From Planctomycetota bacterium (GTDB lineage: Bacteria; Planctomycetota; J058), in contig RFHU01000219.1 of assembly GCA_003695705.1 (NCBI GenBank), positions 15,825-79,824 of the forward strand: a DNA stretch of 64,000 nucleotides, read 5' to 3'. Positions within the stretch are counted from its first letter, which is position 1. The number at the start of each line of letters is the position of its first letter. The position numbers and the translations under genes were made by a program. Below the pieces are notes generated by a model. The model was not told the origin of the DNA. It saw only the letters and a program-made list of their open reading frames with translations, and did not search any database. Of this stretch, positions 1-12,997 are shown piece after piece.

Positions 1-173
1 GCGCCGCCGCCGCGGATGCCGAGGCGGCGCGGATCACCGCCCCGACCTTGGTCGTGATCGGCCGCGTGGTCGGACTCCGCGGCCGCGGCCTGCGCTGGTG
101 GAACGACCGCGACGCACGGGAATGCGCCGAGGAGCCAACCCGCGTCGACGTGCTCGCGGAGGCCCGCGCATGA
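1..173 (+). CDS. cobA: Uroporphyrinogen-III C-methyltransferase (SUMT, CobA/CysG C-terminal type); 3' end only, 5' end lies outside the window
   Basis: The frame ending at TGA 171-173 translates ...ITAPTLVVIGRVVGLRGRGLRWWNDRDARE. This matches the conserved C-terminus of SUMTs (PTLVVIG.VV.L). The stop overlaps the next start as ATGA. Confidence 0.55.
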   Translation, partial: AAAADAEAARITAPTLVVIGRVVGLRGRGLRWWNDRDARECAEEPTRVDVLAEARA

Positions 174-817
174 ACCGCAAGTATCCCGTCATGCTCGACC
201 TCCGGGGGCGTGCTTGCGTCGTCGTCGGCGGCGGAGCGGTCGCCCTGCGCAAGGTGGAGGGCTTGCTGGAGTGCACCGAATCGGTCCGGGTCGTCTCCCC
301 CAGCATCCACCCGGGGCTTGCCGCCCTCGTCCAAGCGGGCCGCGTCGAATACCTTGCGCGCGCCTACGCCCCCGGCGATCTCCGGGGCGTCTTTCTCGTC
401 GTGGCCGCCACGGACGACCCGGACACGAACGAGGCCGTGTGGCAGGAGGCCGAAGCGCTCGGAGTGCTCGTCAACACCGTGGACGACCCTCCGCGCTGCA
501 GTTTCTACGTCCCTGCCGTGGTCCGTCGCGGCGCGCTGACCCTCGCGATCTCCACCGACGGGAAGAACTGCGCTCTCGCGGCTGCACTCCGTAGAGAACT
601 CGAGGAGCGGTTCGGGCCCGAATACGGCCCGCTCCTCGATCTCCTTGGCGAGTTGCGCGACCGCATTCGCCGCGAGGAGCGCGACCCGTCCCGTCGCAAG
701 GCCTTGGCGGAGCGACTCGCCACGGCCGGACTGGATCGCCTCGTCGCTTGCGAGGGCCTGCCCGCCGCCCGTCGTCGCGCCGAAGAACTCGTCGCCCAAC
801 GAGGAGCCACCGCGTGA
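170..817 (+). CDS. Precorrin-2 dehydrogenase / sirohydrochlorin ferrochelatase, SirC/Met8/CysG N-terminal-domain-like (NAD-binding)
   Basis: ATG at 170 begins MNRKYPVMLDLRGRACVVVGGGAVALRKVEGLL. This is a Rossmann GxGxxA/G motif at the very N-terminus, as in the CysG N-domain/SirC. The 98..817 track ORF is trimmed to this in-frame ATG, which overlaps the upstream stop. Confidence 0.7.
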   Translation: MNRKYPVMLDLRGRACVVVGGGAVALRKVEGLLECTESVRVVSPSIHPGLAALVQAGRVEYLARAYAPGDLRGVFLVVAATDDPDTNEAVWQEAEALGVLVNTVDDPPRCSFYVPAVVRRGALTLAISTDGKNCALAAALRRELEERFGPEYGPLLDLLGELRDRIRREERDPSRRKALAERLATAGLDRLVACEGLPAARRRAEELVAQRGATA

Positions 818-2289
818 ACTCCCCCCTCCAAGCTTCTGCCGTGCCCCGTCAATGGACCCTTGACTCCACTGATGCTCCTCCCCCGGACTCCGTACGCCAC
901 GGCGAGACCGGCTTCGCCCGTGCCTGGTTGGGGCTGGCCGTCGGCAGCCTCCTCTTTGCCGGTGTCCTGGCCCTGCTCTTGGTCGTGGCCCGGACGCCGC
1001 CCTTCGTGTACTGGGTCCGCGATCCCCTGTTCTTCAAGCGCTGTCTCGTCGTCCACGTCGACCTGGCCCTGGTGGTCTGGTTCTACGCCTTTCTGGCCGC
1101 GCTGCATCAACGGATTCCCGCCCACGCGCCCAGGAGGGTCCCCGCAGCGGCAGGCTTCGCACTCTCCTTGGCCGGCATCGGTGCGCTGGTCGCTGCCGTC
1201 GGCATCGAGGGGGTGGAGCCGGTCCTGAGCAACTACGTCCCCGTTCTGGACCATCCTCTGTTCCTCTGCGGACTGGCGGCCTTCGGCGCCGGAGTGGCCC
1301 TGAGCTTCTTCGACGGACGCTTGCTCCCTTGGCGCGAAGCCGAGGGCACCGACCTCGACCTGCCCCCCGCCGCGCGACCCGGGCTGCGCGCCGCGGCGAT
1401 CGCCTTCCTCCTCGCGCTCGCGACCTTCGTCGGCGGCGCCCTGGGGACGCCGAGCGGACTTCCCGCGCTTCCGCGCTACGAGCTTGCGATGTGGGGGGGC
1501 GGCCACGTCCTGCAGTTCGCCAGCAGCGCTGCCATGGTCGGCGCCTGGCTCCACCTCGTCGAGCGCGCGAGCGGCGTCGCGCCCGTGGGAAGGCGTCTGA
1601 GCGCTGTCCTCTTCGCGCTCCTCGTCGCGCCCCTTCTCGGCGCACCCCTCCTCACCCTCGCCGGCAGCGACGCGACCGTTGCCCGCGACGGGTTCACTCA
1701 GCTCATGCGCTGGGGGATCTTCCCCGTGGTCAGCGTGTTCCTGCTCCTCTGCCTGCGCGCGCTCTGGCGCGGCGGCGGCGCGCGCACCGCGGCCGGCGTC
1801 GGCTTTCTGACCAGCGCCGGGCTGTGCGTGCTCGGCTACTCCCTCGGCGCGCTGATCCGCGAGCCGAACACCATGGTCCCCGCCCACTACCACGCGTCCA
1901 TCGGTGCGGTGACGGCTTCCTTCATGGCCGTCGCCTACTTACACCTCGAGCCCCTCGGACTCCGTCTCCCCGCCGGTCGCTTGGGCCGCTGGGCACACTG
2001 GCAACCCGCTCTGTTCGGGGTGGGCCAGACGGTCTTCGCCGTCGGCTTCGGGGCGGCTGGCCTGGCCGGCGCCGCCCGCAAGGCCTACGGGCCCGAGCAG
2101 AGCATTCGATCCCTGCAGGAGTGGATCGGCCTCACGGTCATGGGCGCGGGCGGCTTGGTCGCTGCCGCCGGCGGGATCCTCTTCCTCACCATCATGGCGG
2201 CGGCCTTCTGGCCCCGCCTCAGGGGCGCGCTGCCCGGGAGGTCTGCATGTCGGACGAAGTTGAGCGCAAACACCCTCTTCAGCGGCTAA
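814..2289 (+). CDS. Polytopic membrane protein (~490 aa) distantly related to heme-copper oxidase subunit I; function unknown
   Basis: GTG at 814 overlaps the upstream TGA (GTGA). There are at least 12 hydrophobic spans. Two segments resemble COX1 helix VI (MWGGGHVLQFASSAAM vs FFGHPEVYILILP) and helix X (PAHYHASIGAVTASFMAVAY vs AHFHYVLSMGAVFAI). No adjacent HH pair typical of helix VII is seen. Confidence 0.55.
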   Translation: MNSPLQASAVPRQWTLDSTDAPPPDSVRHGETGFARAWLGLAVGSLLFAGVLALLLVVARTPPFVYWVRDPLFFKRCLVVHVDLALVVWFYAFLAALHQRIPAHAPRRVPAAAGFALSLAGIGALVAAVGIEGVEPVLSNYVPVLDHPLFLCGLAAFGAGVALSFFDGRLLPWREAEGTDLDLPPAARPGLRAAAIAFLLALATFVGGALGTPSGLPALPRYELAMWGGGHVLQFASSAAMVGAWLHLVERASGVAPVGRRLSAVLFALLVAPLLGAPLLTLAGSDATVARDGFTQLMRWGIFPVVSVFLLLCLRALWRGGGARTAAGVGFLTSAGLCVLGYSLGALIREPNTMVPAHYHASIGAVTASFMAVAYLHLEPLGLRLPAGRLGRWAHWQPALFGVGQTVFAVGFGAAGLAGAARKAYGPEQSIRSLQEWIGLTVMGAGGLVAAAGGILFLTIMAAAFWPRLRGALPGRSACRTKLSANTLFSG

Positions 2290-2399
2290 TGGACAACACC
2301 TGGCTGCTCCTCGCGCTGGGGCTCTTGGTGCCGATCCTCTCCTACACGGCGTGGGGCTGGATCGAACTCCTCACCCTCCCCGACGCGAAGCTGCCTTGA
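2289..2399 (+). CDS. Small single-TM membrane peptide (36 aa), possibly a small oxidase subunit
   Basis: The ATG overlaps the upstream TAA (TAATG). The product is MDNTWLLLALGLLVPILSYTAWGWIELLTLPDAKLP, a single hydrophobic helix. It is tightly packed between two oxidase genes. Confidence 0.4.
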   Translation: MDNTWLLLALGLLVPILSYTAWGWIELLTLPDAKLP

Positions 2400-2412
2400 G
2401 GACGGAGGACGC

Positions 2413-2946
2413 ATGAGCATTTCCCCGCCCCCCCCGGGCTGGTTCAAGGCCCCCACCGGTGGCGAACGCACCTGGGTTGGCATCGCCCTTCTGTGGTGCC
2501 TGCTGATGTTCTTGATGATGCCCTACTGGCACTTCCGCGGCAAACAGAACAGCACCGGCGAGGCCTACCGCGTCGCTCCCGCGGACTTCGCCGCACGGGT
2601 CGAGCGCTTCGTCGAGAGCAACAAGGTCGCCGAAGACCCGCAGAGCAAGAAGCCCATCGTCGAGCCGGCACCCGGTGGAGATGCCTACCTGCAGGCTCGG
2701 ATGTGGGACTGGTACCCCGTGCTCCGCCTGAAGAAGGGCCAGGAATACCGCCTGCACATCTCGTCGCTCGACCTCCAGCACGGCTTCTCTCTCCAGCCCA
2801 TGAACATGAACTTCCAAGTCCTTCCTGGCTACGACCACGTCCTCACCATCACGCCCACACGGACGGGCGACTACCGGGTCGTGTGCAACGAATTCTGCGG
2901 GATCGGACACCACACCATGGTCGGAAAGATCGAAGTGAGGGACTGA
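2413..2946 (+). CDS. Heme-copper oxidase subunit II-like cupredoxin with a complete CuA site
   Basis: GGAGGA lies 6 nt upstream of the ATG. There is an N-terminal TM helix. The CuA ligand pattern is DLQH....CNEFCGIGHHTM (H, C-x-E-x-C-G-x2-H-x2-M), as in CoxB/NosZ-type CuA. Confidence 0.85.
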   Translation: MSISPPPPGWFKAPTGGERTWVGIALLWCLLMFLMMPYWHFRGKQNSTGEAYRVAPADFAARVERFVESNKVAEDPQSKKPIVEPAPGGDAYLQARMWDWYPVLRLKKGQEYRLHISSLDLQHGFSLQPMNMNFQVLPGYDHVLTITPTRTGDYRVVCNEFCGIGHHTMVGKIEVRD

Positions 2947-4484
2947 TGAGCAGCGTCGGCAACTTCCTCCCCAACCAGTCCCGGACTTGCGACACGACCG
3001 GGCTCCCCGTGTGCCTTACGGCCCAGTTCTTCATCAAGGCCCACGCTGTGTGCGCGGTGGTCTTCCTCCTCGTCGGCGCGATCGGCGCCATCCTCCTGGC
3101 GCTGACCCGCTGGCCCGCGGTGCAACTCCTCGGGCCGACCTGGTACTACCGCACGGTCACCCTCCACGGGATCAACATGCTCATCTTCTGGATCCTGTTC
3201 TTCGAGGTGGCCGTCCTCTACTTCTGCTGCACGAGCCTGCTCAACTCGCGCCTGTTCAGCAGAGGCGTAGCGTGGCTCGGCTTCGTCCTCATGGTCGTCG
3301 GCGCGCTGATGACCGACGTGGCCATCTTCCAGGGCCGCTCCGACGTCATGATGACCTCCTACGTCCCCCTCAAGGCCTCGCCCTGGTTCTACCTCGGCTT
3401 GATCCTGGTGGCGGTCGGCACGCTGATCGGGGTGGTGAACTACTTCCTCACCCTCTACATCGCGAAGCGCGACGGGACCTACGATGGTTCGCTGCCGCTG
3501 GTGGTCTTCGGCGCCACGGCGGCCGCCATCATCGCCGTGGTTGCCATCCTCCACGGCGCCGTCGCGCTCATTCCGACCTGGGCCTGGAGCATGGGCTGGC
3601 TCTCCGAGCCCCCGGATGCGGCCTGGTATCGGCTGATCTGGTGGGGCCTGGGCCACGTATCCCAGCAAGTGAACGTGTGCGCCATGGTCTCGGTGTGGTA
3701 CTTCCTCGCCACCCTGACCACGGGCGCCAAACCGCTCAACCAAGCCGTCTGCCGCACCGCCTTCGTCTTCTACGTGTTGTTCATCAACCTGGCGTCGGCC
3801 CATCACCTGCTGGTGGACCCCGGCGTGGGCGCCACTTGGAAGATCTGGAACACCTCCTACGCCATGTATCTGGCCGTGCTCGCCTCCATGATCCACGGCT
3901 TCACCGTCCCGGCCTCGGTGGAATCCGCCATGCGCGCCAAGGGCTATACCAAGGGGCTCTTCGGCTGGCTCTTCGCGTGCCCCTGGAAGAACCCCGGCTT
4001 CTCGGCCTTCTTCCTCTCCTTGGTCATCTTCGGCTTCATGGGCGGCATCACCGGCGTGACGCTAGGGACCCAGCAGATCAACATCATTGCCCACAACACA
4101 CTGCGGATCCCGGGTCACTTCCACGCCACCGTCGTCGGCGGTACCACGCTCGCCTTCATGGGCCTAACCTACTACGTGGTGCCCCTGATCTTCCGGCGCG
4201 AGTACTACGCGCGTCCGCTGGCCCGCATCCAGCCCTACTTGTTCGGCAGTGGGATCGCGATCATGGCCCTCGCCATGTCCTTCGCCGGCAGCTACGGCGT
4301 GCCGCGGCGGGTGTGGGACGCAGACGCCGGCGCCAACCTGTCGGCCGGCGCCAACCTGATGCTCGCCGGGGTGGGTCTTGGCGGCACGCTCGCCTTCATC
4401 GGGCTCTTGACCTTCATTCTGCTCACCGTCGCGGCGGTGTTCTTCGGCAAGAAGAACGAAGGCCGCCCCATGACCGCCTGGTAA
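2946..4484 (+). CDS. Heme-copper oxidase superfamily catalytic subunit I (512 aa) with an atypical active site; candidate NO reductase / unconventional oxidase
   Basis: The ATG overlaps the subunit II stop (TGATG). Metal ligands are present at helix II (LHGINMLIFWILFFE), helix VI (WWGLGHVSQQVNV), helix VII (SAHHLLVDPG) and helix X (GHFHATVVGG). In the helix VI motif the Tyr expected 4 residues after His is Gln. That pattern is NOR-like, not A/B-type oxidase-like. Confidence 0.85.
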   Translation: MSSVGNFLPNQSRTCDTTGLPVCLTAQFFIKAHAVCAVVFLLVGAIGAILLALTRWPAVQLLGPTWYYRTVTLHGINMLIFWILFFEVAVLYFCCTSLLNSRLFSRGVAWLGFVLMVVGALMTDVAIFQGRSDVMMTSYVPLKASPWFYLGLILVAVGTLIGVVNYFLTLYIAKRDGTYDGSLPLVVFGATAAAIIAVVAILHGAVALIPTWAWSMGWLSEPPDAAWYRLIWWGLGHVSQQVNVCAMVSVWYFLATLTTGAKPLNQAVCRTAFVFYVLFINLASAHHLLVDPGVGATWKIWNTSYAMYLAVLASMIHGFTVPASVESAMRAKGYTKGLFGWLFACPWKNPGFSAFFLSLVIFGFMGGITGVTLGTQQINIIAHNTLRIPGHFHATVVGGTTLAFMGLTYYVVPLIFRREYYARPLARIQPYLFGSGIAIMALAMSFAGSYGVPRRVWDADAGANLSAGANLMLAGVGLGGTLAFIGLLTFILLTVAAVFFGKKNEGRPMTAW

Positions 4485-4495
4485 GGAGGCCCCTC

Positions 4496-4756
4496 GTGAC
4501 CGAACCGACGCCCGAACCGAGCGCCAGCCAACCCGAAGGAGCGGGTCCGACGGAGGAAACGACCCGTCCGGCGTCCGAGGGCAAGGGCCAGCACCCCGAG
4601 GAGGTGCTCTCCGCCGCCGCGGCGCTGCAGCAGGAGGGGGCCGACAGCCACCACACCCCCGGAACGGTGGCTCTGACTTTCATCTTCCTCCTCTGCTTTG
4701 CCGTCTACTACTTCGCCAACTGGAAGGCCCTGGCGGACGTGTGGCACGTTCGATGA
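4496..4756 (+). CDS. Small membrane protein (86 aa) with a C-terminal TM helix, possible accessory oxidase subunit
   Basis: AAGGAGG lies 7 nt upstream of a GTG at 4496. The N-terminal half is hydrophilic and acidic. The C-terminal helix is TFIFLLCFAVYYFANWKALADVW. Its stop overlaps the Sco start (ATGA). Confidence 0.45.
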   Translation: MTEPTPEPSASQPEGAGPTEETTRPASEGKGQHPEEVLSAAAALQQEGADSHHTPGTVALTFIFLLCFAVYYFANWKALADVWHVR

Positions 4757-5736
4757 CCGCCGGCAAGAAGTCCCCTGCTCCCCCCAGCGCGCGGTTTGCC
4801 GCCTGGACCCTGGAGACGCTGCGGGGCTGGCGTTTCCCGAGCTTCATGATCTTCACGCTGAGCTTCGCTCAGCTCGTCCTCCTTGCCCTGCTCTTCGTTC
4901 CCCCGGCGGAGACCGGGCTGGGGGCCTTCGCCGAAAGCTTCAAGACCTGGTGCTTCGGCTACGACCCCGCGACGGGAGAGGTGGAGCCCGGCTACGTGAT
5001 CATGCTGCTCGCAAATCCGTTCCTCCTCGACTTGGTCATCCTCGGGGTGTGGTGGATCCCGCTGCGCGAGGTCCTCCGCGAGCGTCCGCGCGCGCTGCTG
5101 CGTAGCGCGGGCGCCGCGGCCCTGGTCACCGCTCTCTTCGCCGGAGCCTTGGCGAGCTTCGCCGAGGAGCGCCCCCGGGGCCCGCTCCCCTTTCCCGCCG
5201 AGGAGCTGCGCATCGCGCTCACCCCGCCCGACTTCGAGCTTACCGACCAGGAAGGCGCTCCCGTCTCCTTGCACGCCCTGCGGGGACGCGTCGTCCTGGT
5301 CACGGCGGTCTACGCGACCTGCGGTTTCACCTGCCCCATGATCATGGGCCAGAGCAAGCGCGCCCTCGCCGAGCTCACCCCCGAGGAGCGCGAGGAGATC
5401 ACGGTGGTGGGGATCACCCTCGATCCGGCCCACGACACTCCGGAAGTCCTCGCCCGCATGGCGGAGGGGCAGGGGGTTGCGGCGCCGCTCTACCGGCTGG
5501 TTACGGGACCTCCCCCCGAAGTCGAGCGCGTGCTCGACCGCTTCGGGGTCGAGCGACATCGGAACCCGGAGACGGGGATCATCGACCACGCCAACCTGTT
5601 TCTTCTCATCGATCGGCGCGGGCGCATCGCCTACCGCCTGTCCCTCGGCGACCAGCAAGAGCGCTGGCTCGCCACTGCGCTGCGCCTGCTCGTGCGCGAG
5701 CCCTCCCCCACGGCGGAGGGTCGCGCCTTGGAGTGA
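4753..5736 (+). CDS. sco: SCO1/SenC-family thioredoxin-like copper chaperone (CuA assembly) with an extended multi-TM N-terminus
   Basis: The CGFTCP (CxxxC) motif and the downstream His (DHANLFLL) are typical of Sco proteins. There are about 3 N-terminal TM helices. It is translationally coupled on both sides. Confidence 0.8.
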   Translation: MTAGKKSPAPPSARFAAWTLETLRGWRFPSFMIFTLSFAQLVLLALLFVPPAETGLGAFAESFKTWCFGYDPATGEVEPGYVIMLLANPFLLDLVILGVWWIPLREVLRERPRALLRSAGAAALVTALFAGALASFAEERPRGPLPFPAEELRIALTPPDFELTDQEGAPVSLHALRGRVVLVTAVYATCGFTCPMIMGQSKRALAELTPEEREEITVVGITLDPAHDTPEVLARMAEGQGVAAPLYRLVTGPPPEVERVLDRFGVERHRNPETGIIDHANLFLLIDRRGRIAYRLSLGDQQERWLATALRLLVREPSPTAEGRALE

Positions 5737-7829
5737 GCGTCGTGCAACGCCCCGCCGCTTCCGCCGCTCCGCGCAGCGCGCAACCTCCGCTGCGCGGAGA
5801 TGCCGTCCTGCGGCGGCTGGACCGCGCGCTCTTGCGCGTGGTCCACGCCGCGGGACGGCTGGTGCCCGAGGGGCTGAATCCCCTCGAGCAAGCCGGCGGC
5901 GTGGCCAACGTATGCCTGGTGGTGGCCATCCTCAGCGGGGCCCTCCTCCTCTTCTGGTATTCCTCCAGCGTCCACCTGGCCTACGCCTCGCTGGAGAAGG
6001 CCGGAGCGTCCTGGCTGGGGGGGCTGACTCGTTCTCTCCACCGCTATAGCTCGGACGGCTGCGTCTTCTTCGTCCTCATCCACGCAGCTCGCTTGACCTT
6101 GGCGCGCCGGATTGCCGGGCCCCGCTGGCTGGCCTGGGTCACCGGCTGGCTGCTCTTCGTCCTTCTCGTCCTCGTCGGCTGGCTCGGCTACTGGCTGGTG
6201 TGGGACCAACGCGCCCACCGCGTGGCCCTGGGGACCGCGGATCTTCTCGACGCCTTGCCCATCTTCTCCGAGCCCCTCGCCCGCTCCTTCCTCAGCGATG
6301 ACGGTGTGAACTCCCTCCTCTTCTTCGTCGTCTTCTTCCTGCACATGCTCCTCCCCGCGGGCATGGGCATAGCCCTGTGGTTGCACGTCGCCCGCCTCTC
6401 TCGGTCGCGCTTCTTCCCCGGGCGCACGCTCACGCTCTGGATCCTCGGGACCCTGTGCGCCGTCTCGTTCCTGTTTCCGGCCACCAGCGCGCCGCCGGCG
6501 CGCATGGCCGCGCTTCCACAGCGCTTCACCATGGACTGGTGGTACCTGTTTCCCCTCCTCCTCACCGACCGACTCTCCGGAGGCGCGCTCTGGGCCCTGC
6601 ATCTCATTGGCGGCCTCGCCCTCTTCAGCGCCCCCTGGTGGCTGCGCCGCGGCGGCTCGGCAGGCACCCTCCGGACCGCCACGACCGAAGCGAGTCGCTG
6701 CAACGCCTGCGAAACCTGTTTTCACGACTGTCCCTACCTGGCCATCCGCATGGTCCCGCGCAGCGACGGGAGCACTCGCTACGCCACCCAGTCGGAAGTG
6801 GACCCCTCGCGCTGCGTGGGCTGCGGCATTTGCTCGGGCTCCTGCGACTCGGCGGGGGTCGGCCTCCTCGACTGGCTCCCCCCCAAGGCCGAGCGCCGTC
6901 GGCTCGAAGGCTGGCTCGAGGCCCATACGGGGGACCCTCCCCCGGTGGTCTTCCTCTGCGCCGAAGGAGCTAGCGCAGAGTGGCGAGTGGACTCGCTCAA
7001 CGGTCGCTGCGACGCCTTGCCGGGTTGCTACGTCCTCAGCGTTCCCTGCCTTGGCTGGGTGAACGGCTACCTGGTGGACCGTGCTTTGGATCGCGGTGCG
7101 GCCGCCGTGGTCCTTGCAGGCTGCGGTCCCGAGGGCTGTGCCTACCGCGAAGGCTTCGCGCACACCGCCGAGCGCATGCGGGGGCGGCGCAAGCCCGTGA
7201 GCAAGCGCGGCGAAGCCGGCGACTCCCGCATCCACCTGCTCGCGCACGGGCCCGGCGAAGGCGCGGCGCTCCGGGCCGCCGTCGATGCCATTCGGCGCGG
7301 AGAGGCCCCCCGGGCCCGGGCGCCCGTTGGCGCGCGCGCCTGGGCGGGGGGCGCTGTCCTCGCCGCATTGCTCGGGGGGTTCGCCTGGCTGGGGAGCGAC
7401 CTCCCTTACTCGGCTCCGCCGAGTCCGGAAGCGGAGTTGGTCGTGTCCTTCAAGCTGCTCGGACGCCTGCAGGGCGGCATGCGCCGGCTCTCCACCGAGG
7501 AGCTCGAGGCCCTGCCCGTCCATATGCGTCCCAAGGACGGTCGGGTGCCCACGGACCGGCGCCACGCCGACGTGCGCCTGCGGGTCCGCGTGGACGGCCG
7601 CCTGCTGCGCGAGGAGCGCTACGCCCCCGGCGGCCTGTGGGGCGACAAGAACAGCGTAGCCCTCGAGACCATCCCGCTCGCTTCTGGGCGGCACCGGGTC
7701 GAGGTGGAGCTGAGCGACGACCCGGCCGCGAACGAATGGCCGTACCGCTACGAAGCCGAGCTGGAATTCCCGCGCGGGGAGCGGCGCGTGGTGCTTTTCG
7801 ACCGCGAGCACGGCTTCCGCTGTCCCTGA
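5733..7829 (+). CDS. Fusion protein: di-heme cytochrome b-like membrane domain + 2x[4Fe-4S] ferredoxin + MvhD/FlpD-like domain + C-terminal TM/beta-rich domain
   Basis: The N-terminus (about 300 aa) has 5-6 TM helices carrying His residues (VVHAAG, FVLIHAARL, FFLHMLLPAGM, LWLHVARL). It is followed by CNACETCFHDCP and CVGCGICSGSCD ferredoxin motifs. Next comes VVFLCAEGA...CLGWVNGYLVDRALDRGAAAVVLAGCGPEGCAYREG, which resembles the methyl-viologen-reducing hydrogenase delta subunit. The GTG overlaps the Sco stop (GTGA). Confidence 0.7.
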   Translation: MSVVQRPAASAAPRSAQPPLRGDAVLRRLDRALLRVVHAAGRLVPEGLNPLEQAGGVANVCLVVAILSGALLLFWYSSSVHLAYASLEKAGASWLGGLTRSLHRYSSDGCVFFVLIHAARLTLARRIAGPRWLAWVTGWLLFVLLVLVGWLGYWLVWDQRAHRVALGTADLLDALPIFSEPLARSFLSDDGVNSLLFFVVFFLHMLLPAGMGIALWLHVARLSRSRFFPGRTLTLWILGTLCAVSFLFPATSAPPARMAALPQRFTMDWWYLFPLLLTDRLSGGALWALHLIGGLALFSAPWWLRRGGSAGTLRTATTEASRCNACETCFHDCPYLAIRMVPRSDGSTRYATQSEVDPSRCVGCGICSGSCDSAGVGLLDWLPPKAERRRLEGWLEAHTGDPPPVVFLCAEGASAEWRVDSLNGRCDALPGCYVLSVPCLGWVNGYLVDRALDRGAAAVVLAGCGPEGCAYREGFAHTAERMRGRRKPVSKRGEAGDSRIHLLAHGPGEGAALRAAVDAIRRGEAPRARAPVGARAWAGGAVLAALLGGFAWLGSDLPYSAPPSPEAELVVSFKLLGRLQGGMRRLSTEELEALPVHMRPKDGRVPTDRRHADVRLRVRVDGRLLREERYAPGGLWGDKNSVALETIPLASGRHRVEVELSDDPAANEWPYRYEAELEFPRGERRVVLFDREHGFRCP

Positions 7830-7853
7830 GGGCCACGGAGCGAAGGAGGAGAC

Positions 7854-9005
7854 ATGGCCGCGACGAAGCAACCGGCAGGCCCCGAGGAGCGGCTCCCCGT
7901 GTCCACAGGCCCGATCCCAGCAGCTGGGCGTTCGGGCGACGGGTCTGCCGCAGACGTCCGACGGGCCCGGAGCACCGGCCTGGCCTCCGCGGACGCCCGG
8001 GGGTGCGAGCCCGAGAGGCTGGCCTCGGCGTGCGGGATCTCCCCCCGCGGCGTCGCCACGGCCGCGCTCGTCCCTCCCTTCGCTCAGGGAGCGAGGGCCG
8101 TGGAGTCACCGGCCCTCCTCGAGGCCGCGCGTCGATCATCCCTCGCCGGCGCGGCCGCCTGGCTGGTCGATCTCGTAGACCTGGTCAAGGCGCGGTTGAA
8201 CTGCCTCGTCCTCGTGACCATCGCCGTGGGCTACCAAGTCGGCCGAGACCTCGTCTTCGACCGTTCCCTCTTCGCGTGGACCCTGCTGGGAGCCTTCCTT
8301 GGCGCCTGCGGCGCCTGCGCGCTCAACCAGTGGTGGGAGGCGGAGCACGATCGCTGCATGCGGCGTACGGCCCGGCGACCCCTCGCCGCCGGGCGCCTTT
8401 CGAGGGATGCGGCCTTGGGGCTCGGCTTGGCCCTCCTGGGCGCCGGGACCGTGGTCCTGCGCACCTGCCATTCCCTCGCGGCCACCCTGAACCTAGCCAT
8501 TGCTGCGGGCTATCTGCTCCTCTATACGCCCCTCAAGCGCCGGAGCGCCTGGTTCCTGCTCCCGGGCGCCGCGGCCGGCGCCGCCCCGCCCCTCATCGGC
8601 TGGTCGGCGGCGCAGGGGAGCCTGGGTGCGGGCGCGTGGGCGCTCTTCGCGGTGGTCTTCTCCTGGCAGTTCCCGCACTTTTGCGCCATCGACTGGTTGC
8701 ATCGAGATGACTACCGCCGCGCGGGCCACCGCACGCCGGTCGTCGTCGACCCCACGGGTCGCCTCGGCTGCGCCCTGACCCTCGCTGGCGCGCTGGGCTT
8801 TTTCGCCTCGTGCCTCGCGCCGGTCGGCCTCGGCCTCGGCGGAACCTACTACGCCGCGGTGGCCGTGCCCCTAGGCCTCGCCTACCTCGCCCTGAGCCTG
8901 CGCTTCGCCTTCGCGCCGAGCGTCGCCTCCGCGCGCGGGCTCTTCTTCGGCAGCCTGTGCGTCCTGCCCCTCGTCCTCGGCGCGCTGGTGCTGGTTCCGG
9001 CTTAA
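7854..9005 (+). CDS. ctaB: Protoheme IX farnesyltransferase (heme O synthase), UbiA family
   Basis: GGAGGAG precedes the ATG. The motifs ALNQWWE..D..M.RT..RPL and a YxxxK-like UbiA signature are present across multiple TM helices. An N-terminal extension of about 90 aa may indicate a later true start. Confidence 0.85.
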   Translation: MAATKQPAGPEERLPVSTGPIPAAGRSGDGSAADVRRARSTGLASADARGCEPERLASACGISPRGVATAALVPPFAQGARAVESPALLEAARRSSLAGAAAWLVDLVDLVKARLNCLVLVTIAVGYQVGRDLVFDRSLFAWTLLGAFLGACGACALNQWWEAEHDRCMRRTARRPLAAGRLSRDAALGLGLALLGAGTVVLRTCHSLAATLNLAIAAGYLLLYTPLKRRSAWFLLPGAAAGAAPPLIGWSAAQGSLGAGAWALFAVVFSWQFPHFCAIDWLHRDDYRRAGHRTPVVVDPTGRLGCALTLAGALGFFASCLAPVGLGLGGTYYAAVAVPLGLAYLALSLRFAFAPSVASARGLFFGSLCVLPLVLGALVLVPA

Positions 9006-9027
9006 GCGGCGTGCTCGGATCGTCTTC

Positions 9028-10233
9028 GTGACCGTGCCGCCCCCCAGCACCGCGCTCGCCTCTGCGCCGACCTGGCGGCGCGAACCCTACCGCCTGCTCT
9101 TTCCCCTCGGCGTCCTCCTCGCCTGGTGGGGCGTAGGGCATTGGCTGCTCGTCGGCCTGTTCGGCATCGGCTCCTGGAGCGGCGTCTTCCACTCCATCGC
9201 GCAGATTCAGGGCTTCCTCATGGCCTTCGCCTGCGGCTTCCTCTACACAGCGGTCCCCCGCCGCACCCAGACCTGGCCGCCCGCCCCCTGGGAAATGGCG
9301 GTCGCCCTCGCCGCACCGCCCGCCACCACCGCCTGCGCCGCGCTTGGCGCCTTGGCCCTTGCCCAGGCCTGCTGGGGCGTGCTGATGCTTACCCTGCTCG
9401 CCTTCTGCCTGCGTCGTTTCCTCGCTCGCAACGCGGGCCGCAGACCTCCCGACTGCTTCCTCTGGGTTCCCCTCTCCTTCGTCCTCGCGCTGGCGGGGGC
9501 GGGGGCCATTGGAGCGCAGCGCGGACTCGGCCCCGAGTGGTTCTGGCTCCACGACCTGGGACAGAAGTGGATCCTCCAAGGGCTCTTCGTGGGGCTCATC
9601 GTCGGCCTGGGCGGAATGGTCCTTCCCCTCCTCACCCGCGGCGAGGCGCCGCCCGACGCCAGTTCCGGCGTCGGGAGCCGCCTACGGCGTACGGGGCACT
9701 TCGCCTCCTGGCTTGGGCTGGCCGGCAGCTTCGTGCTCGAAACCCGCGGCGCGCCGGCGATCGGCTACGCGGTCCGAGCGGGCTTGACCCTTGCGCTCCT
9801 CCTCGGAGTTGCACGCCTCCACCGACCGCCTTGCCTCCCCGGCTTGCATCGCCGCCTGATCTGGGCCTCCGCCTGGTGCCTCCCGCTGGGCTACGCGTTC
9901 GCTGCGCTCGACCCGGGCCGTGCCCAGGCGGGCCTGCACGTGGTCTTCATCGGAGGCTTCGCCGCCCTCGCCCTCGGGGTGGGGCTCCACGTCACCTTGG
10001 CCCACGGCGGCTACCAGGGGCTGGTCCGCAAGAGCCCCTGGCAGGTGGGCGCCCTGGGCGCGCTCCTCGCCTCGGCCACCGCGGCCCGAGCGGCCCTGGT
10101 CTTCCGTCCCGACGCGCTGAGACCGCTGCTGGTCGCGGCGGCCGCCTCCTTCCTGCTCGCCACCCTCGCCTGGTTCCACCTGCTCTTGCCGCGCACCTGG
10201 CGTCCGGCTCCCCCCGACGAGGCGAACCCGTGA
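9028..10233 (+). CDS. NnrS-like polytopic heme/copper membrane protein (NO-stress associated); family assignment tentative
   Basis: It is about 400 aa with about 12 TM helices and several conserved-looking His residues (GHWLL, FHSIAQIQGF, HVVFIGGF, LAHGGY). Size, topology and the nitrogen-oxide gene context fit NnrS. Confidence 0.45.
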   Translation: MTVPPPSTALASAPTWRREPYRLLFPLGVLLAWWGVGHWLLVGLFGIGSWSGVFHSIAQIQGFLMAFACGFLYTAVPRRTQTWPPAPWEMAVALAAPPATTACAALGALALAQACWGVLMLTLLAFCLRRFLARNAGRRPPDCFLWVPLSFVLALAGAGAIGAQRGLGPEWFWLHDLGQKWILQGLFVGLIVGLGGMVLPLLTRGEAPPDASSGVGSRLRRTGHFASWLGLAGSFVLETRGAPAIGYAVRAGLTLALLLGVARLHRPPCLPGLHRRLIWASAWCLPLGYAFAALDPGRAQAGLHVVFIGGFAALALGVGLHVTLAHGGYQGLVRKSPWQVGALGALLASATAARAALVFRPDALRPLLVAAAASFLLATLAWFHLLLPRTWRPAPPDEANP

Positions 10234-10661
10234 CCGAGATCCTCCCCCACGCGAACGCACTCCTGAACGCGCTCGTGGCGGTCTTGCTCCTCTGGGGACG
10301 CCGTGCGATCCGCCGCGGGGACCGCCGGCTCCACCCCCGCTTGATGCTCTCTGCCCTCGGCGTCGGCCTGCTCTTCCTCGCCGGCTACGGCCTGCAGGTC
10401 TCCCTCTCCGGGCACCGACGCTTTCCGGGCGACGACTGGGTGCGTGTCCTGTTCTTGGCGATCCTGGGCACGCACACCGCGCTGGCCGTGCTGACCGTTC
10501 CCCTCGTCGGCGGCGCCCTGGGCCTGGCCCTGCGAGGGCGCCTCGTCGCGCACCGCCGCCTGGCGCGCCTCGCCTGGGGGGTCTGGCTCTTCGTCGCCCT
10601 CTCGGGGATCGTCATTTACTGGCTGAACAACCACCTTCGCCCGCCGGGAGGTGCCGGGTGA
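10230..10661 (+). CDS. DUF420-family small membrane protein (oxidase-associated)
   Basis: It is 143 aa with 4 TM helices. The GTG overlaps the upstream TGA. Size and topology match the DUF420 proteins commonly encoded beside caa3-type oxidase genes. Confidence 0.45.
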   Translation: MTEILPHANALLNALVAVLLLWGRRAIRRGDRRLHPRLMLSALGVGLLFLAGYGLQVSLSGHRRFPGDDWVRVLFLAILGTHTALAVLTVPLVGGALGLALRGRLVAHRRLARLAWGVWLFVALSGIVIYWLNNHLRPPGGAG

Positions 10662-11089
10662 GCAACGGGCTCTTTCCTCAGACCGTCGAATACGCGCTGC
10701 GTCTCATGGCCCATCTCGCCGTTGCGGGGCGCAACGGTTCGCTGCCCTCCCAGGACCTGGCCGAGGCGACCGACATTCCCCTCGCCTACGTGTCCAAGGT
10801 GCTCCGCAAGCTCGTCGTGGCCGGACTCCTCGAGTCCCAGCGCGGTCACGGCGGCGGCTTCCGGCTGGCGAAGAGTCCCTCGCGGATCAGTTTCGCGGCC
10901 ATCATGGAGGCCGTGGGCTACGAACCCGAGCCGCGCGCCTGCGCCTTCGGGCAAGAGCGCTGCGACTCCGAGAATCCCTGCCTGCTCCATCCCGCCTACG
11001 CGGCCCTCAAGGAGCGCTTCGCCGATTGGGCGCGAAACACGACGCTCACCGACGTTCGGCGGGGGACCAGCGGACGGTACATTCTTTGA
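10658..11089 (+). CDS. Rrf2-family transcriptional regulator with three Cys, NsrR/IscR-like (probable NO- or Fe-S-sensing)
   Basis: There is an N-terminal wHTH (VEYALRLMAHLA...SQDLAEATDIPLAYVSKVLRKL). The Cys triad CAFGQERCDSENPC is typical of cluster-binding Rrf2 regulators. The GTG overlaps the upstream stop (GTGA). Confidence 0.8.
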   Translation: MSNGLFPQTVEYALRLMAHLAVAGRNGSLPSQDLAEATDIPLAYVSKVLRKLVVAGLLESQRGHGGGFRLAKSPSRISFAAIMEAVGYEPEPRACAFGQERCDSENPCLLHPAYAALKERFADWARNTTLTDVRRGTSGRYIL

Positions 11090-11289
11090 TTCCCGCCCCT
11101 CGCCAAGGGGGATCCTCGAGGCCCGCTTCGCTCTGAGGACCGCGGCCGCAGGCCTTGTCTCAGGGGCGGCGTAGCCTGGGTCACAGGCATGGGATTCCTC
11201 CCGTTGTTCGTCCCGATCATGGGACCCGTAGGTCCATTGACTCGCCGGGCGACCGCCGGTCGCGCTGCGGGCTGAGGAGGTCGTCGTTC

Positions 11290-12831
11290 GTGAACCATCG
11301 CAATTCCCTGATCCTGTGCAGTGCCTTGGGCCTGGGTCTCGCCGCCGCGGTCCCGGCCAGGGCGCAAGAAGGCTCCGAAGTCGACGCCCTGCGCGCGCGG
11401 CTCGCCGAGCTGGAGAAGCGCCTCGAAGCGGTCGAGGGCACCGCAAAGGACCCGAGCGCGGTCGGCGCCCCGGAAGGGAGCGCAGCACCCGAGGCCTCCA
11501 CGGAGCCGGCGGCGCCCGCCGAGAAGGAGGCGCCGGCGAAGAAGGGGAAGAAGGGCACTTTCTCCTTCGACCTCCCCGGAGGCCTCCGGCTCCGCCTTTG
11601 GGGTCAAGCCCGCTGGCGGGGAGAGTACCGCGGCGACACCTACGTCCAGCCCAAGACCAACAGCACGACGGATTTCGTCGGACAGCGCACTCGGCTTGGC
11701 CTCGACTTCGACTTGAACAAGCATCTCGGCGTGCGGGTGGCGCTCCAGGACGTTCGCCGTTGGGGTGACGTGGGCGACGGCCTCACCGGGCCCCGCCTGG
11801 CCACCGACCGCGCAGAGATTCACCTCTACGAGGGGTACGGCGAGCTGCGCCGCCCCTGGGACCTCCCCCTGACCCTCCGCGTCGGCCGCATGCGCGTTCC
11901 GCAGCTCGGCGACCAGCGGCTGATCTCGAACCTGGACTGGCATCTCGTGTCTCGTTCGTGGGACGGCGTGCAGGCCACCTTCGAGCCCGAGGGGTGGTGG
12001 ATCATGGCCTTCGCGCACAACGTGCGCGAGCCCACCGGTCTGGTGGCCGGGACCGACGAGAACGATGACCTCTGGTTCAGCGGCCTCTACGTATCCAACC
12101 GCATGGTCGAAGACCTCCAGGTGGACCTGTTCCTCTACTGGCGCTGGCTGGGCGACAACAAGCTGGGGGCCATCGTCACCGACCACAAGGGTGACCGCGG
12201 CGTGCGCACGGACTACACCTTTGGGGCGCGGGTCAAGGGGAAGGCCGGCCCCCTGGGCTACGGCGGCCTGATTGCCTACCAGTACGGCGACCAGGCCGGC
12301 GACATCGTCGCCGCGTGGGCGGGCGCCGTGACGCTCTCCTTCGTCCAGCCTCTCGGCGGCGGGATGAAGTTCAAGGTCCTCGCCGAATACGCCTACGCCA
12401 GCGGAGATCCCGACCCCACCGACAGCCGCGTACAGACCTTCGACCCCTTGCTCCCCTTCGCCCACTACTACCACGGGCACCAGGACTTGTTCGCCTGGCG
12501 CAACCTGCACGCGGTGGCCCTCAAGGCGGTGTTCTGGCCTCTGAAGTGGTTGAGCCTTCATGCCGACACGCACTTCTTCTTCCTCGATCGGCGCGACGAC
12601 CGCTGGTACGGCGTCGGCTTCACCCGCACCGACGGAGCAGGCGCCGCCCGGCACTGGGATTCGGGGTACGTGGGGGCGGAGACCGACCTCTACGTCAAGT
12701 TCAAGGTGCTCGAGCACATTTCCGTGTGGGGAGGCTACTCGCACTTCTTCGAAGGCGCTTACGTTCGCGCCACCGGCTCCAAGTCGAGCGACCAGGACTG
12801 GGCCTTCCTGATGGTTACCTTGGACTTCTGA
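11290..12831 (+). CDS. Alginate-export (AlgE-like) family outer-membrane beta-barrel protein
   Basis: GGAGG precedes a GTG. The signal peptide is LILCSALGLGLAAAVPARAQ. A coiled-coil/Ala-Pro-rich linker is followed by beta-barrel-like alternating segments. The protein ends in the C-terminal Phe (TLDF) typical of OMPs. Confidence 0.65.
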   Translation: MNHRNSLILCSALGLGLAAAVPARAQEGSEVDALRARLAELEKRLEAVEGTAKDPSAVGAPEGSAAPEASTEPAAPAEKEAPAKKGKKGTFSFDLPGGLRLRLWGQARWRGEYRGDTYVQPKTNSTTDFVGQRTRLGLDFDLNKHLGVRVALQDVRRWGDVGDGLTGPRLATDRAEIHLYEGYGELRRPWDLPLTLRVGRMRVPQLGDQRLISNLDWHLVSRSWDGVQATFEPEGWWIMAFAHNVREPTGLVAGTDENDDLWFSGLYVSNRMVEDLQVDLFLYWRWLGDNKLGAIVTDHKGDRGVRTDYTFGARVKGKAGPLGYGGLIAYQYGDQAGDIVAAWAGAVTLSFVQPLGGGMKFKVLAEYAYASGDPDPTDSRVQTFDPLLPFAHYYHGHQDLFAWRNLHAVALKAVFWPLKWLSLHADTHFFFLDRRDDRWYGVGFTRTDGAGAARHWDSGYVGAETDLYVKFKVLEHISVWGGYSHFFEGAYVRATGSKSSDQDWAFLMVTLDF

Positions 12832-12851
12832 GCGCTTCCGGGCGCTCTGGG

Positions 12852-12878
12852 ACCGCTGCAGGCGACCGGCGGAGGTCC
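12852..12878. terminator. Perfect hairpin GCGACCGGCGG-aggtcc-CCGCCGGTCGC between convergent genes (bidirectional terminator candidate)
   Basis: This is an 11-bp perfect inverted repeat with a 6-nt loop. It lies 21 nt after the OMP stop and 120 nt after the glpD stop. No U-tract is present. Confidence 0.45.
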
Positions 12879-12997
12879 CGCCGGTCGCCCGCCGGCTCCA
12901 GGCTCGGGCCTGGCCCCGATCGAGCCGCGGGCGCAGCAGCAGCCGTCGCCCCGGGGAGGGCGGCAGGCAGCGCCGCCGCAGCGGACGGGCCACGCGA

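Follow-up and report, generated by a model that had tools for sequence, protein, structure and literature searches.

The 64,000-nt stretch of DNA analysed here, in the following called the window, belongs to contig RFHU01000219.1 of a Planctomycetota bacterium (assembly GCA_003695705.1, positions 15,825 to 79,824 of the forward strand), has a G+C content of about 70% and carries twelve genes on the plus strand (98-12831) which abut or overlap each other apart from a single gap of 256 nt before the SCO1 gene. We read these genes as one operon on the basis of their overlaps; a scan of positions 1-13000 for consensus promoters and terminators returned nothing above shuffled expectation. Our subject is one of the twelve, the gene of a membrane protein that we term HCOL, for haem-copper oxidase (HCO)-like, and that is encoded in the same cluster as a nitric oxide (NO) reductase of the eNOR type. 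HCOL is a conserved, probably haem-binding paralogue of eNOR subunit I without a metal-B site, and its coordinates, those of its predicted ligand residues and those of the neighbouring genes are collected in Table 1.

The HCOL gene and its predicted ligand residues

The reading frame extends from a GTG codon at 814 to the TAA at 2287-2289, and this start is backed both by the alignment of homologues and by a Shine-Dalgarno sequence, GAGGAG (801-806), found 7 nt ahead of it. The deposited annotation begins instead at TTG 928 and yields a protein of 453 aa, but since this start cuts off Trp38, which is >90% conserved among homologues, the call of 491 aa is the better one. Only one database protein is 100% identical, the hypothetical protein D6731_11140 (453 aa) of a Planctomycetota metagenome-assembled genome. 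An earlier description of this DNA made from its letters alone, the sequence-only reading, had joined HCOL to both neighbours by GTGA overlaps and had placed it immediately upstream of the catalytic subunit pair. The overlap indeed exists at the upstream end, where GTG 814 shares it with the TGA (815-817) of the preceding gene, whereas at the downstream end the stop codon overlaps an ATG as TAATG (2287-2291) or, more probably, the following gene begins at ATG 2247 and overlaps HCOL by 43 nt. This following gene encodes a small single-helix peptide (36-50 aa) that intervenes before subunit II, and HCOL is thus not the direct neighbour of the catalytic pair.

The same reading had taken HCOL for an HCO paralogue on account of local similarity in helix VI and helix X motifs, a resemblance that would be put down to chance if profile comparison gave no match to the superfamily or if the predicted fold were unrelated to it. 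It is however a case of true homology. The Pfam profile COX1 (PF00115) matches HCOL with 43.9 bits (gathering cut-off 34.8; E 1.9e-11) over the whole domain, residues 36-445 corresponding to profile positions 4-431 of 436, and this is the sole Pfam match of the protein, the haem A synthase family CtaA/Cox15 (PF02628) giving none. In BLASTP, HCOL aligns end to end with subunit I of the window (E 5e-11, 25% identity), and comparison by hhalign of a profile of 45 HCOL homologues with a profile of 12 neighbouring subunit I sequences gives a probability of 99.8 and an E-value of 1.2e-29 over 431 columns. The AlphaFold2 model (pLDDT 90.6, pTM 0.90) consists of 12 long helices, and when it is searched against the PDB with Foldseek the best 43 matches are all HCO subunit I chains (probability 1.0), spanning the A, B and C families as well as cNOR and qNOR, while the matches that come after them are unrelated (E >0.06). 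One among these many chains is the ba3 subunit I of Thermus thermophilus (PDB 1EHK, 3S8F; TM-score 0.68-0.71), which is also the best solved relative of the HCOL family profile (E 2.7e-5, full length); it is reached by the family profile only, a single-sequence phmmer search with HCOL against the PDB sequences finding nothing. NCBIfam holds no model for HCOL, and a tblastn search against the PLSDB plasmids gave no match. We can conclude from sequence profile and predicted fold that HCOL is a genuine homologue of HCO subunit I.

Conservation was assessed in an alignment of 127 representatives, one per cluster at 50% identity, and counterparts of residues were assigned by aligning HCOL with ba3 of T. 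thermophilus and with subunit I of eNOR, using the ba3 numbering for His72, His233, Tyr237, His282/His283, Ser309, Thr312, Thr315, His384, His386 and Arg449/450. About 45 positions of HCOL are conserved at >=90%, and His72, His233, His384, His386 and Arg449/450 of ba3 all have counterparts. His81 of helix II, which the sequence-only reading had left unclear, is present and invariant; of the two histidines of helix X, His358 corresponds to ba3 His384 and is the predicted proximal ligand of the high-spin haem, His360 corresponds to His386 and is the predicted second ligand of the low-spin haem, and Arg422/Lys423 take the positions of Arg449/Arg450. His231, the counterpart of ba3 His233, is the sole surviving metal-B ligand, and around it helix VI retains the invariant Trp of this helix as Trp227 and a glutamine, Gln234, at the His+3 position, which is common to eNOR but not to ba3. 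At His+4, however, there is a phenylalanine, Phe235, so that the position of the cross-link Tyr or Gln is lost, and Glu223 takes the place of an arginine that is invariant in eNOR subunit I.

The histidine pair of helix VII was rightly reported as missing, the two positions aligning to Ala277/Pro278, and indeed not one of the 127 representatives has a histidine anywhere in helix VII, which in this family is hydrophobic and contains two semi-conserved prolines. Likewise, no conserved tyrosine is found in helix VI or VII in the alignment. Two of the three histidines of the CuB/FeB ligand set are therefore absent, and together with the loss of the Tyr/Gln position this bears out the earlier suggestion that part of the binuclear-centre ligand set is gone. 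Met298 is 99% conserved and was considered as a new metal ligand, but was rejected because the same methionine is invariant in eNOR subunit I. In helix VIII (303-320), the location of the K-channel, the alignment, which is the only evidence used here, contains no conserved polar residue, and the positions matching Ser309, Thr312 and Thr315 of ba3 are by eye variable or hydrophobic, so nothing resembling a K-channel appears to be kept. In relation to ba3, HCOL is without His282/His283, the cross-linked Tyr237, CuB, the K-type proton path and O2 reduction. In relation to eNOR subunit I it shares the 12-helix fold, both haem sites, the propionate pair, the GH-x-x-Q sequence of helix VI and the gene cluster, and it differs in having Ala/Pro for the helix VII His-His, Phe rather than Gln at His+4 and Glu223 for the invariant Arg, in the absence of K-channel-type polar residues, in its faster evolution and in having no second cupredoxin subunit of its own encoded alongside. 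The residues of HCOL are those of a protein made to carry a pair of haems close to the outer side of the membrane and unable to accommodate a canonical CuB or FeB.

Table 1. Position of HCOL, of its predicted functional residues and of the genes of the surrounding cluster in the window
Feature	Position	Strand	Remarks
Ribosome-binding site GAGGAG 801-806, start GTG 814 and overlapping TGA 815-817 of the upstream gene	801..817	+	Sequence reading
HCOL (HCO-like paralogue)	814..2289	+	491 aa, 12 transmembrane helices; both predicted haem sites kept, metal-B site absent
His81 in helix II, predicted to ligate the low-spin haem axially	1054..1056	+	100% conserved (127 representatives); corresponds to ba3 His72 and His74 of window subunit I
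Helix VI motif E223-x3-W227-G-G-G-H231-V-L-Q234	1480..1515	+	His231 100%, Trp227 99%, Gln234 96%, Glu223 91% (127 representatives)
Ala277-Pro278, helix VII, at the HCO His-His positions	1642..1647	+	Align to His286/His287 of window subunit I and to the HH of ba3
His358-Tyr-His360, helix X	1885..1893	+	His358 100%, His360 99%; counterpart of HFH in ba3 and in eNOR subunit I
Arg422-Lys423, predicted haem-propionate binding	2077..2082	+	99% and 98%; align to the PRR of ba3 and eNOR subunit I (Arg-Arg pair)
Siroheme synthase homologue corresponding to the N-terminal part (precorrin-2 dehydrogenase / ferrochelatase)	98..817	+	TIGR01470, 157 bits
Small single-helix peptide	2247..2399	+	50 aa from ATG 2247, or 36 aa from ATG 2289
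eNOR subunit II, cupredoxin	2413..2946	+	Complete CuA motif CNEFCGIGHHTM; Pfam COX2, TIGR02866
eNOR-type catalytic subunit I	2946..4484	+	512 aa; motif WWGLGHVSQQVN, HH pair present; Pfam COX1, 220 bits
SCO1/SenC copper chaperone	4741..5736	+	PF02630; conserved in the cluster
Fusion of di-haem cytochrome b, two [4Fe-4S] motifs, FlpD/MvhD-like domain, one transmembrane helix and C-terminal u173	5733..7829	+	698 aa; Pfam
Haem O synthase (CtaB/CyoE)	7854..9005	+	TIGR01473, 225 bits
NnrS	9028..10233	+	Pfam; end overlaps DUF420
DUF420	10230..10661	+	Pfam; overlapping ends
Rrf2-family regulator	10658..11089	+	Pfam; overlaps DUF420
Alginate-export-type outer-membrane protein	After the Rrf2-family regulator; region ends at 12831	+	

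The catalytic neighbour and the gene cluster

The subunit I encoded downstream of HCOL has its closest solved relatives among the B-family oxidases (E 1e-41), and in its motif WWGLGHVSQQVN the position of the cross-link Tyr (His+4) is occupied by Gln. As a glutamine here marks the members of the eNOR family (PMC8756737), the protein is of the eNOR type, and it has the Gln for Tyr, the intact three-His site and the CuA-bearing subunit II of these enzymes, whereas HCOL has Gln at His+3 only and is without two of the three His. The same holds elsewhere, every subunit I that adjoins a homologue of HCOL carrying GHxSQQ[VI] or, in two loci, GHQTQQI. The eNOR family is one of the new NO reductase families described by Murali et al. 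2024 (PMC11214002), where HCOL finds no mention in the main text; NO reduction has been shown for the enzyme of Rhodothermus marinus, where each of the two haem sites contains a modified haem A, and CtaA is encoded in many eNOR operons (PMC11214002). Further down the window cluster, the cytochrome b part of the 698-aa fusion protein has the histidine pairs His103/117 and His204/218, both of the form H-x13-H, and should therefore hold two haems spanning the membrane; the two CxxCxxCxxxC motifs that accompany it must be on the cytoplasmic side.

The sequence-only reading had proposed to see whether related operons keep the gene. Starting from HCOL, we collected 80 loci of the Myxococcota type, and in 77 of them HCOL is kept within the eNOR cluster, the order on one strand being HCOL, small peptide, subunit II, eNOR subunit I, SCO1 and the cytochrome b/Fe-S protein. 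Over this set of 77 the identity to the window proteins is 64-79% for subunit I and 35-57% for HCOL, and the small peptide, which resembles subunit IIa of ba3 in size and position, is recognized upstream of subunit II in 64 loci by the motif (HW/PLxRL)MDNPWLLL...SYTxWGW...LP. In the remaining three HCOL is found alone, once downstream of a protein ending in CNACH, once upstream of a c-type cytochrome and once with a P-type ATPase nearby. The siroheme-synthase-type gene that is translationally coupled to HCOL in the window has a homologue upstream of HCOL in just one other locus (L002), and a tie of this gene to the synthesis of haem d1 or of an alternative haem is conceivable.

In Betaproteobacteria the order is a different one, namely small peptide, subunit II, subunit I, CtaB, SCO1, a cytochrome b-[2Fe-2S]-FAD-NAD(P)H reductase fusion, a 173-aa protein, a cytochrome b-[4Fe-4S]-FlpD protein, HCOL and a divergent CtaA-like protein, the final junctions overlapping or abutting by a few nt and HCOL being separated from the CtaA-like gene by a 4-nt gap or overlap. 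The set of components is nevertheless the same as in the window, because the 173-aa protein is a homologue of the C-terminal domain of the 698-aa fusion. On one contig of low G+C the genes run from subunit II and subunit I through a small peptide and an HCOL-CtaB fusion to SCO1. When the search was instead started from eNOR, using the pattern WWxxGHxSQQ[IV]N on metagenome contigs, 120 loci were obtained, all with an eNOR-type subunit I; 22 of these contain HCOL, and among the 44 loci whose total flank reaches 6 kb or more the number is 17. Its placement varies among them, since it may lie upstream on the same strand, downstream past the cytochrome b genes, directly after SCO1, or in divergent orientation, and that the neighbourhood persists through such rearrangement argues for a functional tie between HCOL and eNOR. 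Within the operon the tightest partner of HCOL is the cytochrome b/Fe-S protein encoded further down. CtaB is found in many of the clusters, but an HMM search for CtaA-like genes gave none in the 80 Myxococcota-type loci or in the whole window, and the link to a haem A synthase is for this reason lineage-specific.

Several accessory genes recur around these clusters. The combination of cytochrome b, two [4Fe-4S] motifs, FlpD and u173 of about 170 aa is found in the window (5733-7829) and in the loci L085 (7881-10008), L142 (7031-9053) and L121 (2986-5165), and in the window the cytochrome b/Fe-S part and u173 are joined in one 698-aa protein with a transmembrane helix ahead of u173. In L142, a cluster without HCOL, the u173 gene is directly followed by a hemerythrin-like gene of 129 aa (9050-9439). 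The Betaproteobacterial fusion of cytochrome b, [2Fe-2S] ferredoxin and FAD/NAD(P)H reductase, seen in L085 (5942-7888), L088 (5941-7887) and L084 (7550-9484), would be able to move electrons between cytoplasmic NAD(P)H and haems at the outer face, and a function as quinol:NAD+ oxidoreductase has been proposed for such a cytochrome b-reductase fusion (bioRxiv 10.64898/2026.01.22.701106). NirS, the cytochrome cd1 nitrite reductase, is encoded next to or near Betaproteobacterial HCOL clusters in L081 (2396-3889), L092 (12559-14304) and L084 (19268-22105), the last of which combines NirS-type cytochrome c and cytochrome d1 domains with a radical SAM domain in one product of 945 aa and is adjoined by a gene for a NirD/L-like regulator. 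Downstream in the window, NnrS and the Rrf2-family regulator fit an NO-related regulon; a further 6 loci encode the alginate-export-type outer-membrane protein, and a further 5 encode DUF420.

Spread, fusions and published mention of the family

Among 1.84 billion representatives the HCOL profile finds 1,585 clusters at E<=1e-3, 1,175 at E<=1e-10 and 682 at E<=1e-30, so that the size of the family can be put at roughly 700-1,200 clusters at 50% identity, and since the profile does not draw in the ordinary and far more numerous HCOs, HCOL constitutes a family of its own. When one genome was scanned for each species, 429 genomes were found to encode a relative, the carriers including Myxococcota, Acidobacteriota, Balneolaceae, Verrucomicrobiota, Planctomycetota, Spirochaetia and Methylomirabilota, with a further large clade in Burkholderiales. 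Among the cultured carriers are Fodinibius halophilus, Fodinibius sp. AD559, Gracilimonas mengyeensis and Rhodohalobacter sp. SW132, and Rhodothermus is not among the best 120 matches of a search seeded with a Balneolaceae homologue. HCOL is thus under strong constraint across hundreds of lineages, which agrees with the earlier view that the gene is not a decaying fragment.

HCOL is also found fused to other proteins. The commonest fusion joins a cytochrome b to its N-terminus and was found in at least 16 clusters at 90% identity from JGI, ENA, NCBI and Logan, as proteins of 755-768 aa without the Fe-S part, and one such gene is directly followed by NirS. In three clusters HCOL is followed by an extra helix and a C-terminal periplasmic TPR domain like that of cytochrome c biogenesis protein H. 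Three further arrangements, all from metagenome assemblies, were each met with once: P0288 joins cytochrome b, Fe-S motifs and HCOL in a single protein; P0227 joins HCOL to haem O synthase, in one cluster and with no unfused arrangement seen; and P0324, likewise one cluster, joins HCOL to a CtaA-like protein, its C-terminus being 49% identical to the CtaA-like gene that comes next after HCOL in Betaproteobacteria. Because the unfused neighbours overlap or abut in related contigs, P0288 and P0324 could be products of frameshifts. The cytochrome b fusion is robust; P0227, P0324 and P0288 are treated as leads. Among 269 members no signalling or output domain is fused to HCOL, the fusions being to cytochrome b, Fe-S, UbiA, CtaA-like and TPR parts only.

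The family has, as far as a literature search for the term "eNOR scaffold protein" can tell, been noticed in one place, a preprint on a denitrifying, Fe(II)-oxidising culture (bioRxiv 10.64898/2026.01.22.701106). There, gene 2878407321 of Ferrigenium straubiae, annotated as hypothetical or as cytochrome c oxidase subunit I (K02274; SI Table 6), is labelled "eNOR scaffold protein" with function stated to be unknown, its operon arrangement is termed "very common", and the protein is reported in the proteome of the culture (bioRxiv 10.64898/2026.01.22.701106). The eNOR operon to which it belongs also encodes haem O synthase, Sco1 and a pair of cytochrome b fusion proteins, as is seen around the Betaproteobacterial HCOL, and the Ferrigenium gene appears to be the counterpart of HCOL, the two being equated here by operon position and annotation and not by sequence. 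Compared with the present analysis, the preprint contains no ligand analysis, no definition of a family and no basis for the word scaffold. HCOL represents a large and unnamed family, noticed once without analysis.

The role of HCOL

The reading that we prefer, and to which we give roughly an even chance of being correct, is that HCOL is a redox-active two-haem accessory of eNOR which exchanges electrons with the cytochrome b/Fe-S protein and is not a canonical reductase. It would be an expressed paralogue of eNOR subunit I from which the non-haem metal site and the proton channel have been lost. Its cytochrome b partner would exchange electrons with the bis-His low-spin haem (His81/His360), this haem would equilibrate with the adjacent one held by His358, and the distal pocket of the latter, formed by His231, Trp227 and Gln234 without a second metal, may bind or turn over a small ligand. 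That the pocket is conserved at all suggests that the second haem of HCOL still meets a small molecule, but with two metal ligands and the proton path lost, canonical binuclear reduction of NO or O2 would be impossible for it. Origin by duplication of an eNOR-type subunit I is likewise suggested, because GH-x-x-Q is shared and because the profile match to eNOR subunit I lies far above that to any solved oxidase. A partnership both physical and redox in nature is most strongly indicated by the repeated fusions to a di-haem cytochrome b, and the stand-alone copies beside c-type cytochromes also speak for the preferred reading. Haem binding, contact with the cytochrome b, and the direction and the purpose of electron transfer are inferred here. 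The module may feed or help eNOR at work, as an auxiliary path for electrons or by means of a haem that handles a ligand, or it may act while the enzyme is being matured.

Certain facts are in poor agreement with such a role. The clusters L142, L121 and L099, each with 8-9 kb of flank, contain the cytochrome b-[4Fe-4S]-FlpD protein and the 173-aa gene but no HCOL, from which it follows that HCOL is dispensable for eNOR in some lineages and that the cytochrome b/Fe-S protein is independent of it; the latter and u173 appear to be the more general accessories of eNOR, and HCOL is a frequent addition. A pure electron relay would moreover not need an open and strictly conserved distal pocket, and the AlphaFold2 model of P0226, a natural fusion of cytochrome b to HCOL, has a pTM of 0.62, a poor cytochrome b part and no confident arrangement of the domains. 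The haem binding and the interactions of HCOL are predictions from sequence and gene context, and the single fusions to haem O synthase and to the CtaA-like protein point towards cofactor maturation.

Altered metal-B ligands are also known from other members of the superfamily. NO dismutase belongs to the HCO superfamily and has an altered catalytic site. The gNOR enzymes resemble HCOL in having a modified three-His site, a single His being replaced by Asp (PMC11214002). Both are however thought to be still metal-binding and catalytic, whereas in HCOL two of the three His have given way to non-ligating residues. A different kind of parallel is offered by NifEN and CydB, copies of the catalytic subunits of NifDK and CydA, respectively, that are encoded alongside them, have lost part of their cofactors and serve in assembly or structure. 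The parallel is one of analogy without homology, and HCOL differs in keeping its haem sites and in having a dedicated redox partner.

By that analogy HCOL might be a scaffold for cofactor maturation, i.e. a dead copy of subunit I that takes haem O from CtaB and converts it to, or holds it as, haem A(s) together with a CtaA-like partner, while the cytochrome b/Fe-S protein moves the electrons of the oxidation before the haems reach eNOR subunit I, much as NifEN does for NifDK. We regard this as possible though rather unlikely. It would account for P0227 and P0324, in which HCOL is joined to haem O synthase and to a CtaA-like protein, respectively, for the HCOL-TPR proteins with their likeness to cytochrome c biogenesis protein H and for the presence of CtaB in many clusters, but both synthase fusions come from metagenome assemblies and are represented by one cluster apiece, the second possibly a frameshift artefact, and the Myxococcota-type loci and the window are devoid of CtaA-like genes. 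We furthermore know of no report of an HCOL-like paralogue in Sulfolobus, which weighs against this reading. The B-family oxidases of Sulfolobus use haem As (PMC11214002). The modified haem A in both sites of eNOR and the CtaA of many eNOR operons (PMC11214002) agree with a maturation role, as does the puzzle raised in the Ferrigenium preprint, that eNOR needs haem A, whose synthesis requires O2, and yet is made under nominally anoxic conditions (bioRxiv 10.64898/2026.01.22.701106). Bis-His haem sites buried in a bundle of 12 helices would however make poor haem donors, and HCOL is absent from some eNOR clusters.

Less probable still is that HCOL is an autonomous enzyme in which the cytochrome b provides an input linked to quinol or NAD(P)H and NO, O2, peroxide or nitrite is turned over at a five-coordinate haem. 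The strict conservation of the distal pocket despite the loss of metal B (His231 100%, Trp227 99%, Gln234 96%) would be well explained in this way, the robust cytochrome b fusions without Fe-S would make self-contained four-haem proteins, one of them is encoded directly before NirS, and the stand-alone copies by c-type cytochromes lie away from any eNOR. Against this stand the facts that 77 of 80 copies lie beside a complete NO reductase, next to which a second would be redundant, that the alignment contains no conserved cytoplasmic proton pathway, and that we did not find a working HCO without metal B described in the literature consulted, the three metal-B histidines being conserved in all HCO families except gNOR (PMC11214002). 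A long shot is that HCOL and the cytochrome b/Fe-S protein, in Betaproteobacteria with the CtaA-like protein, form a membrane haem enzyme of the HCO fold without a second metal that turns haem O into haem A(s), or supplies the oxidising power for this step, under conditions of little or no O2.

The sequence-only reading had offered a non-catalytic partner, a sensor and a scaffold as options, of which the haem-free scaffold and the sensor are the less likely. That HCOL merely steadies or organises the eNOR complex without haem, or signals NO or O2 to a regulator, seems improbable to us, in spite of the label given in the preprint, of the Rrf2-family regulator and NnrS downstream in the window and of the Crp/Fnr-type regulators near some loci. 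In a scaffold without haem, one would not expect all three haem ligands and the propionate pair to stay conserved at 98-100% across a divergence of about 50%, and a sensor is made unlikely by the lack of any fused signalling or output domain in the 269 members and by regulators that are not consistently adjacent. Indeed the strict retention of all haem-binding residues, which already disfavours the scaffold, also rules out a decaying gene. A pseudogene or chance similarity of motifs, for which nothing speaks beyond the loss of two ligands, is to be dismissed as having next to no probability, and was rejected in view of the intact frame with its good ribosome-binding site, the relatives in 429 species genomes, the conservation of about 45 positions at >=90%, the confident predicted structure and the profile E-values of 1e-11 to 1e-29; the presumed Ferrigenium counterpart has in addition been detected as a protein.

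HCOs are defined by a haem and second-metal centre, and the HCOL family, found in at least several hundred lineages of at least seven phyla, keeps the predicted haems and drops that centre. The family is associated with eNOR, which has been recognised only recently and is a source of nitrous oxide widespread in the environment. Two questions about this enzyme, namely how electrons reach it and how its haem A is made at low oxygen, are touched by the link of the family to the cytochrome b/Fe-S protein and, in certain lineages, to the synthases of haem O and haem A. A role in the conversion of haem O to haem A(s) would, if true, explain how denitrifiers build a haem-A-dependent NO reductase under anoxia. 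The cultured carriers Fodinibius, Gracilimonas and Rhodohalobacter make these questions testable, as does Ferrigenium if its "scaffold" gene is the counterpart of HCOL. A practical matter is the naming of the family, whose members appear in databases as "hypothetical", "cytochrome c oxidase subunit I" or "cbb3-type cytochrome c oxidase subunit I", the last name being given by RefSeq/PGAP to P0389, P0301, P0447 and others. For oxidase surveys the "cbb3-type" name is misleading, since HCOL is without a metal-B site and is closest to the B-family and eNOR enzymes, and in metagenome surveys it can inflate the counts of oxidases and of NO reductases.

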